DNA from: Podarcis pityusensis
Taxonomy: Eukaryota
Reading direction: 5' to 3' (one strand)
Length of the DNA stretch: 64,000 bases
Assembly: GCA_964106645.2 (NCBI GenBank)
Contig: OZ067039.1
Part shown: positions 58,945-63,999 of the stretch, piece by piece
Position numbering within the stretch: position 1 is the stretch's first letter
How the letters are laid out: each line of letters begins with the position of its first letter
Translations under genes and position numbers: made by a program
The notes under the pieces: generated by a model
The model's input: the letters and a program-made list of their open reading frames with translations, nothing else
Database searches by the model: none
What the model was told of the DNA's origin: nothing

Positions 58945-60269
58945 TATAATTTATTATTTATACCCCACCCATCTGGCTGAGTTTCCCCAGCCACTCTGGG
59001 CGGCTCCCAATCAAGCTTTAAAAACAATACAGCATTAAATATTAAAAACTTCCCTAAACAGGGCTGCTTTCAGATGTCTTTTAAAGATAAGATAGCTGCT
59101 TACCTCCTTGACATCTGATGGGAGGGCATTCCATAGGGCAGGCGCCACTACTGAGAAGGCCCTCTGTCTGGTTCCCTGTAACCTCACTTCTCGCAATGAG
59201 GGAACCGCCAGAAGGCCCTTGGCGCTGGATCTCAGTGTAACCTGGCCTTGGGCCTTAGTGTGAAGAGCAGGTAAGAAAGACAGAAAGAAAGAGTAGTCCA
59301 GCAGTATTTGCAGTGCCACGCATTAGCCAGCTCTGTGCTAGGCTGGCACAGCATGTGGAAGTGTGTTCAGTTCCGCTTAGAGACAGGATGGAGGGAGTCG
59401 GCAATGGTGGAGTCAGACCAATGATGACATGCGGTTTCCTAGGTGACGTAAGGCGGGTGGAGAATAGGAGGGACTTTGGCAGGCGTGGAAATGGCTCTGC
59501 ACTGTTTCCCACTGTAGCTGTAGGCCAATCCCAAAGCTATTATTATTCATTGAGTTTATATACCACCCTATACCTGGAGGTCTCTGCACCATTTGAGCAC
59601 TTCCCAAGAGTTTCTTTCCTTATAAGTTGCCCAGAGAGAAGCAGGGAAATGTTTTGAGGTATTTCTTCTTGCATGCAAACTGGGGCTTCTCTTTTCTTTT
59701 CCTCCAGGGTGAGAAGGGCGAGCCTGGTGAGATTGTGAGTATCTGAGATTTCCCAAGGAAGGTGATCTCACACTGAAGTCCTTTTAGGGCCTAAAGAGGT
59801 GTTGGTCCCTGGGGGTGGAAACAGCAGTTAATCTCTCTGATCGTTTTTGCAGGGACGGAAAGGACGCATGGGACTTCCTGGGCCTTCTGGAGAGCCGGTA
59901 ATGTCTGCTCTTTTGTGTGGGTCCCTGGGCTGTATGGCATGGAGTAGAGCTCATCTTGTTTGTTAGGGTGCTGTTGGTTTGACTAGAGCCCTTTCCTTTT
60001 CAGACTATTGGGGGCGAGGCAGGTGGGGGGGGGGACATCCCTTGGCAGCATCCCAGCCTGTATTTCAGGCAGGTTATAGCTCCCACCACCAAAAGCATTT
60101 GGGGAAAAACCACAACAGCAACCAGGCAGGTTGTAAATAAAACAAATCCTATTATTTGTCTTTGGTTTTTTTTCAGGGGCGCAATGGGATCCCAGGTGCT
60201 CCAGGCCCAGTAGGACCTCGGGGTCCTCCAGGTGATGTCACTGAGCGGCGGGGTGAGAAAGGAGACAGG
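23005..60269 (+). CDS. COL7A1: Collagen alpha-1(VII) chain or COL7A1-like gene, coding exons 1-31 (whole NC1 domain plus start of triple helix); 3' part lies beyond the window
   Basis: 31 exons with consistent phases join into 3918 nt without stops. Peptides such as [65 protein letters not shown] and GEKGEPGE match collagen VII, and many exon sizes (85,181,160,94,164,130,137,127,173,36,27,45) match human COL7A1 as I recall it. Orthologue versus paralogue is not resolved. Confidence 0.93.
25866..26046 (+). CDS. COL7A1: Exon 2: vWA1 start with MIDAS DGSSS
   Basis: tacag|TG...CCCAG|gtgagt; [26 protein letters not shown]...VQYSDEPR. Confidence 0.95.
27275..27434 (+). CDS. COL7A1: Exon 3: vWA1
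   Basis: ccag|G...AAG|gtaccg; TEFTFSTYRNGTAVMRAVREMAYKSGNTRTG...RPNVPK. Confidence 0.95.
27857..27950 (+). CDS. COL7A1: Exon 4: vWA1
   Basis: atcag|ATC...GTGG|gtgagt; [31 protein letters not shown]. Confidence 0.95.
28398..28430. repeat. (CA)n microsatellite
   Basis: Direct reading. Confidence 0.95.
29048..29206 (+). CDS. COL7A1: Exon 5: vWA1 end
   Basis: ctcag|GC...GCAG|gtaaaa; GIKNADSSELTKVASTPTEDYFFFVTDF...VSRRVCTSTGG. Confidence 0.93.
29673..29836 (+). CDS. COL7A1: Exon 6: FN3-1 first half
   Basis: ttaag|GT...GAG|gtgagg; PSNLVFLEQGTDMLRIRWTAAGGPVIGYKVQY; alternative in-frame AG at 29677-29678. Confidence 0.9.
31134..31263 (+). CDS. COL7A1: Exon 7: FN3-1 second half
   Basis: gacag|GTT...ACTC|gtgagt; VSLGPGETSTVLRGLRGGTDYLVTVIAQYANSIGESVSGKGRT. 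Confidence 0.94.
32346..32433. repeat. Compound (TA)n/(TG)n/(CA)n microsatellite
   Basis: Direct reading. Confidence 0.95.
32432..34066 (+). mobile_element. 5'-truncated L2-clade LINE with open RT ORF (to 33849), 3' UTR and (TTA)n tail
   Basis: NYRPVSNLPFLGK, QSGFR, LDLSAAFD, GVPQG, YADN, SRLDYCNSL, LHWLPV; ORF-track residues before ~32432 are translated microsatellite. Confidence 0.92.
34096..34331. mobile_element. Tigger/mariner-like MITE, related subfamily
   Basis: TIR cagtggtaccttg...caaggtcccactg followed by TA. Confidence 0.78.
34715..34834 (+). CDS. COL7A1: Exon 8: FN3-2 first half (no counterpart in human COL7A1 as recalled)
   Basis: tacag|AG...AGAG|gtgagt; AVSGVANFQVLDAGPTFLRLSWAPGLGTLQGYRLTYLGR; phase 1-1. 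Confidence 0.88.
37180..37329 (+). CDS. COL7A1: Exon 9: FN3-2 second half (no counterpart in human COL7A1 as recalled)
   Basis: caaag|GT...ACGT|gtaagt; GETQPEEISLGPSATSALLSNLRPNTDYMITLYPIYPRQTVAPAVINGRT; read directly, not in the ORF track. Confidence 0.88.
38119..38497 (+). mobile_element. Sauria SINE
   Basis: tRNA-like head with B box ggttcgaatcc, (ACCTTT) tail, flanking direct repeat taatggacatgg. Confidence 0.88.
38564..38683 (+). CDS. COL7A1: Exon 10: FN3-3 first half
   Basis: ctcag|TG...TCAG|gtatgt; LSALNISSQGMLVTWRGVSGATGYRVTWGLLS. Confidence 0.93.
39989..40246. mobile_element. Short Tc2/pogo-like MITE, same family as 12747-14009
   Basis: Related TIRs, TA flanks, shared ggggaaatgtgtgtgcgtcYtatggagcgaatgcaggct; 25-bp internal stem. 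Confidence 0.85.
41580..41726 (+). CDS. COL7A1: Exon 11: FN3-3 second half
   Basis: ctcag|GT...ACTG|gtgtgt; LLTGLQPDSDYLVTVAPVFGQVEGP. Confidence 0.92.
41979..42229. mobile_element. Tigger/mariner-like MITE
   Basis: TIR cagtcataccttggttgt...acaaccaaggtacgactg, TA TSD. Confidence 0.82.
42314..42360. repeat. (TG)n microsatellite
   Basis: Direct reading. Confidence 0.95.
42591..42707 (+). CDS. COL7A1: Exon 12: FN3-4 first half
   Basis: tttag|AA...ACAG|gtaacc; QTLRIVTIDPTSIQLAWNIIPNIRGYRLEWRKAT. Confidence 0.93.
43398..43547 (+). CDS. COL7A1: Exon 13: FN3-4 second half
   Basis: tccag|GT...ACTG|gtgagt; GLEPPRTVTLP...GLQPGTEYHITLFTLYDGKEVATP. Confidence 0.94.
44619..44964 (+). mobile_element. 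Sauria SINE
   Basis: Same family; TSD ttcattcgccat at 44605-44616 and 44965-44976. Confidence 0.88.
45354..46215 (+). mobile_element. Solo terminal-repeat-like retroelement remnant (LTR or DIRS/Ngaro type, family uncertain)
   Basis: CpG-rich 0.86 kb block with TATA-like ccttaaaa (~45605) and AATAAAGTTGTGGCC (46121-46135); the same 15-mer ends a similar block at ~3640-3920. Confidence 0.55.
46435..46563 (+). CDS. COL7A1: Exon 14: FN3-5 first half
   Basis: tgcag|GG...CAGG|gtgagt; PVGSISDLRVTETLGNRVRLAWTGVPGATAYKVVLRNTQ. Confidence 0.93.
47202..47348 (+). CDS. COL7A1: Exon 15: FN3-5 second half
   Basis: tgcag|AT...ATCC|gtaagt; EKTRRIPGSQTTEDLTDLKEDVVYVVRISAVIGNREGSA. Confidence 0.93.
48259..48384 (+). 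CDS. COL7A1: Exon 16: FN3-6 first half
   Basis: tgcag|AA...GATG|gtgagt; ITNLQVAALGPSQLRVTWNPVAGVTGYKVTW. Confidence 0.93.
49292..49435 (+). CDS. COL7A1: Exon 17: FN3-6 second half
   Basis: cccag|GT...ACAG|gtgagg; QEFSQVLPANRNSYTIEGLRPGSFYLIGVSALVGNREG. Confidence 0.93.
49533..49658 (+). CDS. COL7A1: Exon 18: FN3-7 first half
   Basis: tgcag|CC...GATG|gtacag; APDQVGMVTSLQVLESRSTDVRVTWVGVPGVTAYRIVWGRSD. Confidence 0.93.
50053..50199 (+). CDS. COL7A1: Exon 19: FN3-7 second half
   Basis: cgaag|GT...ACAC|gtaaga; IQNLEGGVSYTVKVTALIGNREGDPVSLIVTT. Confidence 0.93.
50764..50889 (+). CDS. COL7A1: Exon 20: FN3-8 first half, ending in a GC donor
   Basis: ctcag|CG...GATG|gcgagt; VGNLRVTDSSEKHIRVEWSPAPGSTGYRLVWQPAD; phase 1 is required by the next exon. 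Confidence 0.85.
51233..51379 (+). CDS. COL7A1: Exon 21: FN3-8 second half
   Basis: ggcag|GC...ACTG|gtaaat; GPERSQLLPANVNTYDIRDLQPGGRYEIRITSLVGNQES. Confidence 0.92.
52359..52478 (+). CDS. COL7A1: Exon 22: FN3-9 first half
   Basis: ttcag|CAG (NAGNAG)...CGAG|gtaatg; RVTNFRVAEIQRDTAILTWTPVPGATGYLLTWKSPR. Confidence 0.9.
53086..53232 (+). CDS. COL7A1: Exon 23: FN3-9 second half
   Basis: tccag|AC...ACAG|gtgagg; RTLPGSATSHQVSGLRLGRSYTFTIRPLFGSVTGPETSVT. Confidence 0.93.
53275..53980 (+). mobile_element. CR1-type LINE 3' end split by the L2 insertion
   Basis: Translates LEGFQRGLDKF; the UTR reads through the insertion as ...cccacaggcatct|ggttggccactgtgagaac...; similar pieces at ~26090-26320, 35210-35410 (-) and 47540-47710. 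Confidence 0.65.
53448..53899 (+). mobile_element. 3' fragment of the same L2 family, nested in a CR1 3' end
   Basis: Closely similar to 33614-34063; (TTTA)n(TTA)n tail. Confidence 0.9.
54269..54405 (+). CDS. COL7A1: Exon 24: vWA2 start (degenerate MIDAS, VHATRD)
   Basis: tacag|TC...CAG|gtaatg; VCRDARRDVVFLVHATRDNA...LGQLGPGATQ. Confidence 0.94.
55142..55268 (+). CDS. COL7A1: Exon 25: vWA2
   Basis: cccag|GTG...ATTG|gtaagt; VGIVLYSYRGLPLLRLNRSSDL...YDEPSGNAI. Confidence 0.94.
55934..56077 (+). CDS. COL7A1: Exon 26: vWA2
   Basis: tgcag|GA...GCAG|gtaagg; GRRPGVPGTLVILADGPSSDDAIGPARDLKAA. Confidence 0.93.
56581..56753 (+). CDS. COL7A1: Exon 27: vWA2 end
   Basis: tgcag|GA...GGG|gtaaga; GIQVLAVGMNGADREQLRRL...GLVNALCRAA. 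Confidence 0.94.
56960..57216. mobile_element. hAT-type MITE
   Basis: Ends catgggtagacaaact / agtttgctgacccctg; perfect TSD tcttaagt. Confidence 0.85.
57641..57676 (+). CDS. COL7A1: Exon 28: cysteine linker [12 protein letters not shown]
   Basis: ctcag|CCT...AAG|gtaagt; 36 nt. Confidence 0.93.
58903..59240 (-). mobile_element. 3' fragment of a second L2-type LINE with (TTA)n tail
   Basis: Encodes LRSS...RAFSVVAPALWNALP...FKRHLKAALF; related 3' tip at 3923-4068. Confidence 0.85.
59708..59734 (+). CDS. COL7A1: Exon 29: first Gly-X-Y exon GEKGEPGEI
   Basis: tccag|GGT...ATT|gtgagt; 27 nt. Confidence 0.9.
59853..59897 (+). CDS. COL7A1: Exon 30: GRKGRMGLPGPSGEP
   Basis: tgcag|GGA...CCG|gtaatg; 45 nt of Gly-X-Y. 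Confidence 0.9.
60177..60269 (+). CDS. COL7A1: Exon 31: GRNGIPGAPGPVGPRGPPGDVTERRGEKGDR
   Basis: ttcag|GGG...AGG|gtgggt; 93 nt of Gly-X-Y with one interruption. Confidence 0.88.
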
Positions 60270-60669
60270 GTGGGTACTCACAGCATCTCATGTGGTCTTG
60301 AATATTTTACTCAAAAGGGAGCAGAACGCTAAGAATGATGGAGCTTTTATGGGCAGGAAGCCTTCCTTGTTCCTCCTCATCAATCTGTTCAAGATCAGAG
60401 AATCCCTCTGGGTTCATCTTAAATTAGAGAATTTAGCTTTATGGTGCCTCTGTTGATGAACTCCCTTTCCTGCAAGATGAATAGACTATGGGAGCTTGTT
60501 GCAATAACTTGCCTGCTTGGGTTACCTGGAGCTATCTGCTCTGCAGTCCTTTTGCTTTTGTTATTTGGATCTGACTGAGGGCCTGGCGAGTAACAGGCCC
60601 TTCCTTTCAGGTAAAGAACAAATTAGATGATCTGTGATCCCTTTCATTTCTAGTCTTCTAGGACTGTGT

Positions 60670-61102
60670 GATGATTATGAGTTACTCGTGCGTAAACTGG
60701 TGCTTCTCTAGGCTCATTTGCCTTGTTAAACCTTTCTGACTGCACAGCCCTTTCTCATCATGACTGTCTCAGTCACTAGCAGAATCCGTCAGTGGGCGTT
60801 TCTTGAATCTCTTCCAACATAAGAGTTGTTTGACACCCAATCTCCTCCGCCTCTCACTGCGCGGGAGCCTTCTGCGCAGGGTGGGCGTAGGTAGCGGAGG
60901 ACCTGTCCCCTCCTCACTGAGTTCCAGTGAAGAGTCCGTGAGCCCTCTCTCCGATTTCCCCATCAGCTCACTTTTGTTCCTGGTGTTGCGCTTAAATGCT
61001 TCCCCCTCCACTGAGCTGCTTCTCCCCCTGCTGCTGGGTCCTTCTCCAGCATCATCTAGGAGCCTCCCCTTCGCCTCCCGCTCTGATGTCAGTTCCCTGA
61101 CA
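60670..61102 (-). repeat. 3' LTR of the Gypsy element (distal end approximate, possibly truncated)
   Basis: Starts TGTCA immediately after the PPT; no AATAAA or clear TGACA terminus found. Confidence 0.6.
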
Positions 61103-63999
61103 TCCACCTCCCCCCCAGAATCCCCTCCACCCCTGGACCGACCTGTGGGACCAACTTCGTCCCCTTCGTCGGTCGAGGAGGCGGGGAAACCCCGGAAGGA
61201 ACTGTCACCATCTTCTGTGGATTCGAAACCCGCTTCCCAATCGCTCTTCCACCTACCAACGGGGTGGTCTTCCCCGTCTGACGCTTCTTCCTCCGAAACC
61301 TCTCCTCCCTCCTCCTCGGAGTCAGAAAATCCCTCAAAAACCTCTTCCTCATCTGTGGTTCCAAATTGCTCCTCCCAGAATCTCTCCAGGGGTTTGGGTT
61401 TGTCCGGGAACCGGCGGTGGAATACCTCCACCAGATACCTGTCCTCGACGGCTTCCGTGGGGACCCACGTGTTTTCGGACCTGGGTTCCCCTTCCCACGC
61501 TACCAAATACTCCACCCGGCGCCCTTGCCACCTGGAGTCCAGTATTTCCGTGGCCCTGTGGTGGTGTTCCCTTTCTTCTACCTGCGGGTGTGTGGTGACT
61601 TCTCCCTCTTGCCCCTGGAATTCCCGCCCTTCCCTATGCGGTGAGAGCAGGGACCTATGGAAAACCGGGTGTATTTTCATGCTATCAGGCAACCTGAGCT
61701 TAAATGCCACGGGATTAACTTGCTGTGTTACCTCAAAAGGTCCCAGCCGTCTGGGCTGCAACTTCTTGCACCCCCCTTTGAAAGGTAGCCCTTGGGTGGA
61801 CAACCACACCCGGTCCCCCACCCGTATGGTCTCCCCTTCCCTGTGGTGCTTGTCTGCCTGCCTCTTGTAAGTTTCCTTGGCCCGCTCCAAGTTCATCTTA
61901 AGTTGCTGGTGTAGGGCCTCCATTTCTTCCACAAACTGCTCTGCAGCGGGTACGCTCCAGCTTTCCTCCCCACTCCCCGGGAAGGCCCTGGGATGACACC
62001 CATGGTTGGCCATGAATGGGCTCATTCCCGTGGACACGTGTTCCGCGTTGTTGTACGCGAATTCAGCCAGCGCTAGTTTTTCTACCCAATCGTTCTGCCT
62101 CTCGCTGACATAGCAGCGTAGGTATTGCTGGAGTATACTGTTCACTCTTTCTGCTTGCCCGTTGGTCTCTGGGTGTCTCGCCGTCGAGAAACCCACCTCC
62201 ACCTGCAGTAAGCTCATGAGCTTCCTCCAGAACCGGGAAGTAAATTGTTTTCCGCGGTCGGAGATAACCCTCAAGGGGGCACCATGCAGCCGGAATATGT
62301 GCTCCACAAACAACCGGGCTGTTTCCTCTGCCGTTACAGCATGTGAGCAAGCTATAAAATGGCACATTTTTGTCAGTAGGTCGACCACCACCATGACTGC
62401 TGTCTTTCCCCGGGACTTGGGCAAATCTGTCATAAAATCAATGGATACCACCTCCCAGGGTTTCCCCAGCGTGGGTAAGGGTTCCAGCAATCCTGTGGGG
62501 GCAGCCCGCTCCCCCTTTGCCCTTTGGCAGCGGTCGCACCCCCGTACATATTCCCGTACATCCTCCCTCACCCTGGGCCACCAGAACTGCCTGGTCACAA
62601 GCATCATGGTTTTGTGCTGTCCAAAGTGCCCTGCTGTGGGGTTGTCGTGGAGTTGTTTGAGTACCTTTCCCCTCAGGGTCTCCCCCGGTACGTACAGCGC
62701 TCCCCTATAGTACAGTACCCCTTCCTTCTCCTCAAACCCTTCTTGGGTCCCTCTTCCGTCTCGTAGTTCCCGGATTTTAGTTTGCGCGAACACGTCGTTT
62801 CTGGTCAGCCCGGCTAGTTCTCGTTTCCCCACCAAAGTTCCCCCACACACCCATCGGTCCTCGGGGATCACGTGTCGTTTCTCCGGCGGCCCCTCTCCTT
62901 CCAGGTACTCCGGTTTACGCGACAGAGCGTCTGCTCTTACGTTTTCCTCTCCGGGCACGTAGCGGATTTCAAAGAAAAACTTGGAGAACTCCTGTGCCCA
63001 TCGAATCTGTCTCTGGTTGAGTACTCGTGCGGTTCTCCAGTACTCCAAGTTCTTGTGATCTGTGCAAACCTGGATCTGTTGTTGCGCTCCTATCAGTAGA
63101 TGGCGCCAACAACGAAAGGCCGCGTAGATTGCCAGCAGTTCGCGGTCATACACTGTATAGTTTTGCTCCGACTTGCTCAGTTTTCTCGAGAAAAAGGCAC
63201 ACGGTTTCCATTCCTGCTTGCTCTTCCCTGGCTGCAAAAAGACCGCCCCTACGGCTCTGTCGGATGCGTCGGTCTCTAGCCTCAGTGGTTTCTCCAGATC
63301 CACGTGCAGGAGTTGCTCTTCCGATGCGAACGCCTTCTTCAGCTTTTCGAAGGATTGTTGGGCCTCTTCTGTCCACACAAACTTCTTTTTGCTATTGAGA
63401 CAATCCGTGATGGGCGCTGTCAAGTGGGCGAAGTTCTTGATGAACTTCCTGTAGAAGTTGCTGAACCCTAGGAACCTCTGTACGTCCTTCCGTGTTTTGG
63501 GAGCCTTCCACTCCAGCACTGCCTGCACCTTGCTTGGGTCCATCGCTAAGCCTTTGTCAGACAACTTGTTCCCCAGAAACTCGACTTCTCTGGCGTGAAA
63601 CTGACATTTTTCCAGCTTGACCCACAACTGGTGCTTCTGCAGTCGTTGTAACACTTCCCTGACGTCTCTAACATGTTGTTCCTCATTGTCTGAATAAATT
63701 AAGACGTCGTCCAAGGAGGCTACGCAGTTCTTGTACAGCAGAGACCCCAACACGTGGTGCATGAAAGCTTGAAAACAGGCGGAGCCCGACTGTAATCCAA
63801 AAGGCATAACTAAGTACTCAAAGGCACCTAGGGGTGTGAACATTGTGGTCTTCCATTCGTCCCCCTCCCTCATCCTGATCAAATTGTATGCGCCCCTGAG
63901 GTCCAGCTTGGTAAAAATTTTGCCTTTCCTCACTCGCGTTAAAATGTCGTCAATCCTGGGCATTGGGAAGGTCACGGGTTCTGACACCAAATTGACAGC
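60769..63999 (-). CDS. pol: Gypsy pol polyprotein, 5'-partial: RT, RNase H, integrase with GPF motif, chromodomain, acidic/basic tail
   Basis: KLDLRGAY, MPFGL, SLDD; TDASD, RELLAI, TDHKNL, ADALSR; H-H-C-C zinc finger (LHD..GHFG..CDRC); D,D35E (SIDF, ISDRG, QAERVN); RLGPF; ILDSR..YLVAWEG..ENTWVP. Frame stays open to the window edge. Confidence 0.95.
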   Translation of the reverse strand, partial: AVNLVSEPVTFPMPRIDDILTRVRKGKIFTKLDLRGAYNLIRMREGDEWKTTMFTPLGAFEYLVMPFGLQSGSACFQAFMHHVLGSLLYKNCVASLDDVLIYSDNEEQHVRDVREVLQRLQKHQLWVKLEKCQFHAREVEFLGNKLSDKGLAMDPSKVQAVLEWKAPKTRKDVQRFLGFSNFYRKFIKNFAHLTAPITDCLNSKKKFVWTEEAQQSFEKLKKAFASEEQLLHVDLEKPLRLETDASDRAVGAVFLQPGKSKQEWKPCAFFSRKLSKSEQNYTVYDRELLAIYAAFRCWRHLLIGAQQQIQVCTDHKNLEYWRTARVLNQRQIRWAQEFSKFFFEIRYVPGEENVRADALSRKPEYLEGEGPPEKRHVIPEDRWVCGGTLVGKRELAGLTRNDVFAQTKIRELRDGRGTQEGFEEKEGVLYYRGALYVPGETLRGKVLKQLHDNPTAGHFGQHKTMMLVTRQFWWPRVREDVREYVRGCDRCQRAKGERAAPTGLLEPLPTLGKPWEVVSIDFMTDLPKSRGKTAVMVVVDLLTKMCHFIACSHAVTAEETARLFVEHIFRLHGAPLRVISDRGKQFTSRFWRKLMSLLQVEVGFSTARHPETNGQAERVNSILQQYLRCYVSERQNDWVEKLALAEFAYNNAEHVSTGMSPFMANHGCHPRAFPGSGEESWSVPAAEQFVEEMEALHQQLKMNLERAKETYKRQADKHHREGETIRVGDRVWLSTQGLPFKGGCKKLQPRRLGPFEVTQQVNPVAFKLRLPDSMKIHPVFHRSLLSPHREGREFQGQEGEVTTHPQVEEREHHHRATEILDSRWQGRRVEYLVAWEGEPRSENTWVPTEAVEDRYLVEVFHRRFPDKPKPLERFWEEQFGTTDEEEVFEGFSDSEEEGGEVSEEEASDGEDHPVGRWKSDWEAGFESTEDGDSSFRGFPASSTDEGDEVGPTGRSRGGGDSGGEVDVRELTSEREAKGRLLDDAGEGPSSRGRSSSVEGEAFKRNTRNKSELMGKSERGLTDSSLELSEEGTGPPLPTPTLRRRLPRSERRRRLGVKQLLCWKRFKKRPLTDSASD

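Follow-up and report, generated by a model that had tools for sequence, protein, structure and literature searches.

We describe two short motifs in the integrase tail of a Gypsy chromovirus from the lizard Podarcis pityusensis (GenBank assembly GCA_964106645.2, contig OZ067039.1), found on the minus strand of a stretch of 64,000 nucleotides that we call the window. Both motifs resemble the TND-interacting motifs (TIMs; TND stands for TFIIS N-terminal domain) by which host proteins bind the integrase-binding domain (IBD) of LEDGF/p75 and its relative HRP2, and comparison of subfamilies of the element shows strong purifying selection on their anchor residues. On the strength of the sequence comparisons set out below, we propose that the tail binds the LEDGF/p75 or HRP2 IBD by motif mimicry, tethers the integration complex and likely replaces the element's own chromodomain, whose aromatic cage is gone; we put the probability of this reading at about 0.6. 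Since histone-reading residues have been lost and a LEDGF-type motif has been conserved, the clade likely borrows LEDGF to reach chromatin.

Two motifs in the integrase tail

The features on which the argument turns are the following.

61327..61380, minus strand: TIM1, FWEEQFGTTDEEEVFEGF, with helix FWEEQF, an acidic linker of 8 residues and FEGF (DEEEVFEGF at 61353-61327)
61186..61239, minus strand: TIM2, WEAGFESTEDGDSSFRGF, with W-x3-F, an acidic Ser/Thr linker of 9 residues and FRGF (61197-61186)
61411..61548, minus strand: chromodomain (Pfam PF00385, E 8e-08), aromatic cage residues 1 and 3 gone, Trp alone kept
60769..63999, minus strand: pol frame with reverse transcriptase, RNase H, integrase, SH3, chromodomain and a tail of 207 residues, reaching the window edge without closing

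In a TIM, a helix that presents hydrophobic anchors is followed by 8-16 residues of acidic, Ser/Thr-rich linker and, optionally, by FxGF (PMC9987994). Such motifs lie in disordered regions, and CK2 phosphorylation raises their affinity for TNDs. The helix and linker alone suffice to bind other TNDs, and FxGF matters specifically for recognition of LEDGF and HRP2; its presence in the element thus points to LEDGF/HRP2 as the target rather than to other TNDs (PMC9987994). TIM1 begins about 10 codons beyond the end of the Pfam chromodomain. The initial annotation had read a duplicated W-x3-F...acidic...FxGF unit, set in Ser/Thr-acidic, CK2-like sequence, in the minus-strand pol frame, and its coordinates and reading are exact for both motifs. 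Each helix presents W-x3-F (aromatic or aliphatic at −4, Phe at 0), the linkers of 8 and 9 residues consist of Asp, Glu, Ser and Thr to 75% and 89%, and 11 S/T-x-x-D/E (CK2-type) sites lie in the 98-residue tail between the chromodomain and the long terminal repeat (LTR). In most relatives the TIM2 helix reads W-x-x-V-F. The first motif had also been said to fit the host consensus exactly, and it does: the strict IBD-motif consensus D/E-x-E-x-F-x-G-F (PMC8022399, in part, a phrase that here marks sources cited from a portion of their text) is matched in the window, P0131, P0134, P0148 and P0283 by TIM1, and in P0290 by both motifs. The second motif of the window does not match it.

How closely do these motifs follow those of the host? 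Four host motifs (JPO2 M1, JPO2 M2, PogZ and MLL1) were taken from fusion constructs and scored in the same way as the element motifs. Their linkers measure 8, 10, 8 and 14 residues, respectively, against 8 and 9 in the element, whose spacing agrees with that of JPO2 and PogZ, and the helix residue at −4 is hydrophobic in every motif scored, host and element alike. The MLL1 helix uses Phe129 and Phe133 (PMC8022399, in part), the same i, i+4 pair as the W-x3-F of the element. On the receptor side, the host genome contains PSIP1 and HDGFL2 IBD exons. The lacertid IBD is identical to the human domain at 89 of 98 positions (91%); by our own mapping, four of the five helix-pocket residues named in PMC8022399 (in part) are unchanged and the fifth, Thr394, is Ala.

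A single-chain structure model places the motifs in a disordered region, with a helix at residues 147-154, where TIM1 starts, and a predicted local distance difference test score (pLDDT) below 50 at 155-164 and 166-224. Pfam gave no match in the tail, a sequence search of the PDB with the tail alone returned 0 hits, and the chromodomain profile retrieved chromodomains only. The ESM Atlas provided no lead: it returned generic clusters of SH3 and chromodomains at 0.87-0.89 and, for the tail alone, nothing above 0.83.

Chance produces this arrangement rarely. Among 200,000 shuffles of the 98 tail residues, two FxGF occurred at a frequency of 0.002 and two helix-Phe...FxGF units at 5e-6. Six-frame control sequence of 1.16 million residues contained 141 FxGF, and 105 other chromovirus proteins contained 86; the full motif layout was seen at none of either set, as judged by a filter that was chosen after the motifs had been seen and that the Gly-rich MLL1 motif would fail.

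Conservation, selection and range

Three genome searches yielded 90 loci, 87 of which could be parsed. Both helix Phe residues, both Gly residues and both last Phe residues of FxGF are present in all 87 loci, and the TIM2 Trp (replaced once, by a stop) and the first Phe of the TIM2 FxGF in 86 each. Purifying selection has acted strongly on the anchor residues as the subfamilies diverged: across eight copies, whose pairs are kin and not independent, the proportion of nonsynonymous differences (pN) at the ten anchor codons is 0.02 against a synonymous proportion (pS) of 0.90. For the same eight copies pN is 0.31 in the spacer, 0.44 in the residues after TIM2 and 0.17 in the chromodomain. Because the synonymous sites of the anchor codons are saturated, the constraint acts on the protein; DNA-level constraint on the motifs was considered and rejected on this ground.

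Profile searches add distant families, namely F (LQEIF-9-FIGF), G (DWLF-TPTLSAST-FxGF-DSDEE), P0004, P0134 and P0290. Families F and G also occur in the genome of the window, where many copies of the latter have long open frames. The integrases of F, G, P0004 and the window's group are 48-67% identical to one another, and every family of the TIM clade that we have seen keeps at least one intact FxGF. The initial annotation had named a lack of FxGF conservation as grounds for refutation; the motif proved to be kept, across families at about 50% integrase identity whose remaining tails cannot be aligned. In alignment, the F and G motif falls on TIM1, a position common to the basal families, so that TIM1 looks ancestral and TIM2 is likely its duplicate; P0004 keeps TIM2 only. 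The named TIM carriers are all Podarcis. As few squamate retroelement proteins are in the databases, this range is a lower bound. Among vertebrate chromoviruses the motif is no common property, being missing from the fish and frog relatives. Tails of the Rhineura entries, which are gene-model joins, cannot be judged.

Family G has the most altered motif, with no acidic linker, and no cage Trp. Those of its copies that have long open frames are concentrated near the ends of chromosomes (C2:0-1.7 Mb, C5:100.2-100.8 Mb and C6:98.4 Mb) in a list that is biased by tied scores.

Loss of the chromodomain cage

The cage was counted in 130 proteins, in which 129 chromodomains could be parsed. A full three-aromatic cage is present in 108 of the 129, none of which has an FxGF tail. 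All 18 chromodomains followed by an FxGF tail have an incomplete cage (no cage aromatic in 7, one in 10 and two in 1), and in the remaining 3 the cage is incomplete and FxGF is absent. The window and its clade do not have the type I (methyl-lysine-reading) cage: the window copy retains one of three aromatics and members of the TIM clade between none and two, family G being without even the Trp. Absence of the first cage residue and of the last is what defines type II chromodomains (PMC3059260, in part). In the sister squamate elements and in relatives from fish, frog and fungi the full cage is mostly retained, and their tails are short, basic (RGRGRP) or plain, with no FxGF.

In an integrase tree of 44 entries, which are kin and midpoint-rooted, the 12 TIM entries form one branch that implies one gain (Shimodaira-Hasegawa-like approximate likelihood ratio test, SH-aLRT, 100); a further analysis recovered this clade as well. 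Its sister (SH-aLRT 98) consists of squamate elements, including family H, in which the cage is intact and FxGF is lacking. Cage loss and motif gain thus form one evolutionary event, which suggests, without proving it, a swap of targeting parts. We tentatively extend this to a full exchange of modules, in which the clade would have dropped a heterochromatin-type cage reader, gained a host-type TIM recruiting LEDGF/HRP2 and moved integration to H3K36-methylated gene bodies; we consider this extension possible but somewhat less probable than its opposite.

Other tails in this slot differ. Fish chromoviruses (P0184, P0295, P0301, P0317 and others) have an AT-hook-like RGRGRP or PRGRP motif at the same position, and the slot therefore seems to host interchangeable targeting peptides. 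In family H (P0308 / L135), a short acidic stretch follows a Trp in the tail (MAWDSDSEDETEES) with no FxGF; this is possibly a helix-only or precursor motif.

Insertion pattern

Insertions of one TIM family, C, were compared with those of family H, in each case using the 150 best-scoring matches and not a random draw; family G was left out of the distribution tests, its tied scores being listed in contig order. These proxies are weak and see surviving copies only, and in flies the genic bias of new LTR-element insertions is erased among germline copies (PMC10018349, in part). Repeat cover, CpG and strand skew do not differ between the flanks of families C and H. A lower flank GC of TIM families (67 TIM against 29 H flanks, p 3e-5) was rejected when it failed to replicate in 20+20+20 new 8-kb stretches (p 0.14 against H, 0.82 against fixed control places). 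The proxies give no support for gene-body targeting. Of the two parts of the earlier proposal, motif mimicry is well supported at the sequence level by layout, selection and conservation, and a preference for gene bodies finds no backing in composition or chromosome distribution.

The contig C19 (38 Mb) shows a strong pile-up of copies, with near-identical copies about 20-25 kb apart in an array at 0.5-0.97 Mb, and may be the W chromosome.

Proposed mechanism and alternative explanations

We propose that the disordered tail would dock on the LEDGF or HRP2 IBD. The first pocket of the IBD would receive the aromatic residue and the Phe of the helix, its basic patch the acidic linker, probably phosphorylated by CK2, and its second pocket FxGF. 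The host PWWP domain would then hold the integration complex on H3K36-methylated chromatin. The parts of this proposal differ in strength. Binding with these predicted contacts is quite likely. That such binding acts at integration we favor by a smaller measure, and a shift of insertions towards H3K36me2/3 gene bodies is a conjecture to which we give slightly less than even odds.

A number of observations weigh against our proposal. The first Phe of the TIM1 FxGF is kept in only 57 of 87 loci; it is Leu (LxGF) in all 30 copies of subfamily C, which is very active and rich in intact copies. The strict consensus is failed by TIM2 of the window, P0001, P0003, P0004, P0131 and P0283, and also by family G, whose linker keeps Ser/Thr and contains no acidic residue. 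At helix position −1 the window copy has Gln or Gly, whereas each of the four host motifs has a hydrophobic residue there, and most relatives of the element have Val, Ile, Met or Leu. Cage loss and motif gain are linked on one branch only, and both the tree entries and the codon pairs are kin. Finally, the share of copies on small as opposed to large autosomes is 26/115 in TIM family C and 38/130 in family H (p 0.25), and the share on contig C19 is higher in the TIM family (30/150 against 16/150, p 0.036).

Would binding to LEDGF or HRP2 have to govern the choice of site? The tail might instead stabilise integrase, hold it on chromatin through cell division or raise the efficiency of integration. 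This explanation, which we consider unlikely yet the foremost of the alternatives, agrees with the lack of insertion bias in any proxy and with the finding that LEDGF shields HIV integrase from degradation (PMC8303831, in part). It is weakened by the nature of the proxies, which record survivors, by the loss of genic bias among fly germline copies (PMC10018349, in part), and by the cage loss in the same clade, which suggests that a targeting part was exchanged. Less probable again is a different TND partner (TFIIS, ELOA, PNUTS, MED26 or IWS1), or partners specific to each family, with steering to promoters or to elongating polymerase. Other TNDs are bound by helix and linker alone (PMC9987994), helix and linker vary between families, most of all in G, and serial double motifs occur in host proteins that bridge TNDs; however, the most constant part of the element motifs is FxGF, the part tied to LEDGF/HRP2, which no family seen has lost from all its motifs.

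There is, lastly, a slim chance that the resemblance is convergent noise and that the region serves a non-TND partner, an intramolecular contact with the chromodomain or a nucleic-acid signal beside the polypurine tract. The motif is short and embedded in low-complexity acidic sequence, the TIM1 helix directly follows the chromodomain, and the motif region is near the polypurine tract. Against this, the saturated synonymous sites of the anchor codons argue for constraint on the protein, the unit has been duplicated away from the chromodomain, and FxGF with the full layout was absent from both backgrounds (0/141 and 0/86).

The element and its host locus

The remaining features of the element and its surroundings are these.

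62170..62460, minus strand: integrase core (Pfam rve)
61636..61818, minus strand: Tf2-type SH3 (GPY/F) domain (Pfam)
61103..61116, minus strand: polypurine tract, read through in frame by pol
60667..61102, minus strand: 3' LTR, 436 bp, TG...CA, with 5 differences from the 5' LTR and the last 111 pol codons inside
60783..60792, minus strand: LTR positions 311-320, which can pair with the 10 bases that follow the 5' LTR, apparently a primer site of the self-priming type
60662..60666, minus strand: 5-bp target-site duplication CAGTC
60177..60231, plus strand: host collagen exon 5' of the intron bearing the element, in an apparently COL7A1-like gene

The window together with the neighboring genome stretch, a domain search and comparison of the LTRs show a complete Gypsy chromovirus copy. 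It encodes gag (capsid and zinc knuckle) and pol (reverse transcriptase, RNase H, integrase zinc finger and core, SH3 and chromodomain); the pol frame measures 1361 residues from stop to stop in the genome. Membership of the chromoviruses (Ty3/Gypsy) is evident from the LTRs, the target-site duplication, gag and the order of reverse transcriptase, RNase H and integrase. We take the element to belong to the Tf1/sushi group, and a primer site complementary to the LTR to be the self-priming pattern. The family is large and young, with at least 150 scored genome matches, all at 77-100% identity. Contigs from probable RNA runs cover parts of the element, one of them spanning the motifs at about 92% identity, and are not counted as evidence of expression.

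In all TIM-clade families examined (window 61102-60769, minus strand, L095, L127 and P0004), pol continues past the polypurine tract and ends within the 3' LTR. The extension consists of an acidic stretch and a basic patch and has an end with a Trp, which is LLCWKR in the window's group (60825-60808, minus strand) and in P0004 and LLNWCR in family G. It resembles the plant CR motif in position and may be a nuclear-localisation signal or an overlap with promoter sequence. At L007-L009 (C2:1.54 and 1.67 Mb) tandem copies have a common LTR, the primer site of the next copy directly following the 3' LTR.

Collagen exons flank the element on both sides, and those upstream are spliced at GT-AG in four probable RNA runs of a relative, in agreement with the intronic position noted earlier. 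The element is antisense to this host gene, which has a vWA exon and is probably COL7A1. The next intron of the collagen gene (L031 7248-8000, minus strand) contains two tandem fragments resembling a GIY-YIG endonuclease, presumably of a Penelope-type element.

Comparison with known systems

We found no TIM or FxGF described in a retrotransposon in the literature searched, which did not extend to subscription journals and supplementary tables, where proteome-wide scans could list such elements. The papers listed as joining FxGF with transposition terms concern host proteins, as judged by title and the start of the abstract. A review of TNDs has lentiviral integrases alone under viral mimicry (PMC9987994), and LEDGF binding has been called limited to lentiviruses (PMC8303831, in part). 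In PMC5053271 (in part) chromoviruses appear only in connection with their chromodomain, and LEDGF has been suggested, with no data, as a partner of the fly LTR elements that favor H3K36me3 (PMC10018349, in part).

If the full exchange of modules took place, no mobile element before this one would be known to use the linear FxGF motif of its host, and LEDGF-guided integration would have arisen independently a second time, apart from lentiviruses. The clade offers a concrete and cheaply testable case, with peptides of 20-30 residues and a domain that shares 91% of its residues with its human counterpart, and a natural control in the same genome in the young sister family H, which has an intact cage and no motif. 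Should binding hold, it would show a retrotransposon trading one chromatin reader for a borrowed one, add naturally selected TIM variants from which TND specificity can be learned, and bear on where young insertions land in lizard genomes.

The element has the gag, the order of reverse transcriptase, RNase H and integrase, the SH3 and chromodomain, the 5-bp target-site duplication and the LTR-complementary primer site of vertebrate Tf1/sushi-group chromoviruses (Ty3/Gypsy, Metaviridae). HIV integrase binds LEDGF through a folded surface and not through a linear FxGF motif. With the host motifs of MLL1, JPO2 (CDCA7L), PogZ and IWS1 (PMC9987994; PMC8022399, in part), the element tail has in common the helix, the acidic Ser/Thr linker and FxGF, and JPO2 likewise has two motifs in series. 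The element motif differs in sitting on the integrase of a mobile element, PogZ being transposase-derived and yet a host gene, and several element copies deviate from the host TIMs at helix position −1 and in the residues ahead of FxGF. Plant chromoviruses with a type II chromodomain or CR motif have also lost the first and last cage residues and also code into the 3' LTR; no TIM is described for them in PMC3059260 (in part), where a CR motif stands in place of the chromodomain and is associated with centromeres. In Ty1, a short C-terminal integrase segment binds a host factor, RNA polymerase III, and directs integration (PMC7459421 and PMC10050235, both in part); partner and motif are different, and the tether is demonstrated for Ty1 and inferred for the lizard element. 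Lentiviral integrase pairs with LEDGF/HRP2, and HIV integrase overlaps the FxGF site (PMC8022399, in part); the lizard element would have in common with it the predicted host domain and the borrowing of a PWWP reader.

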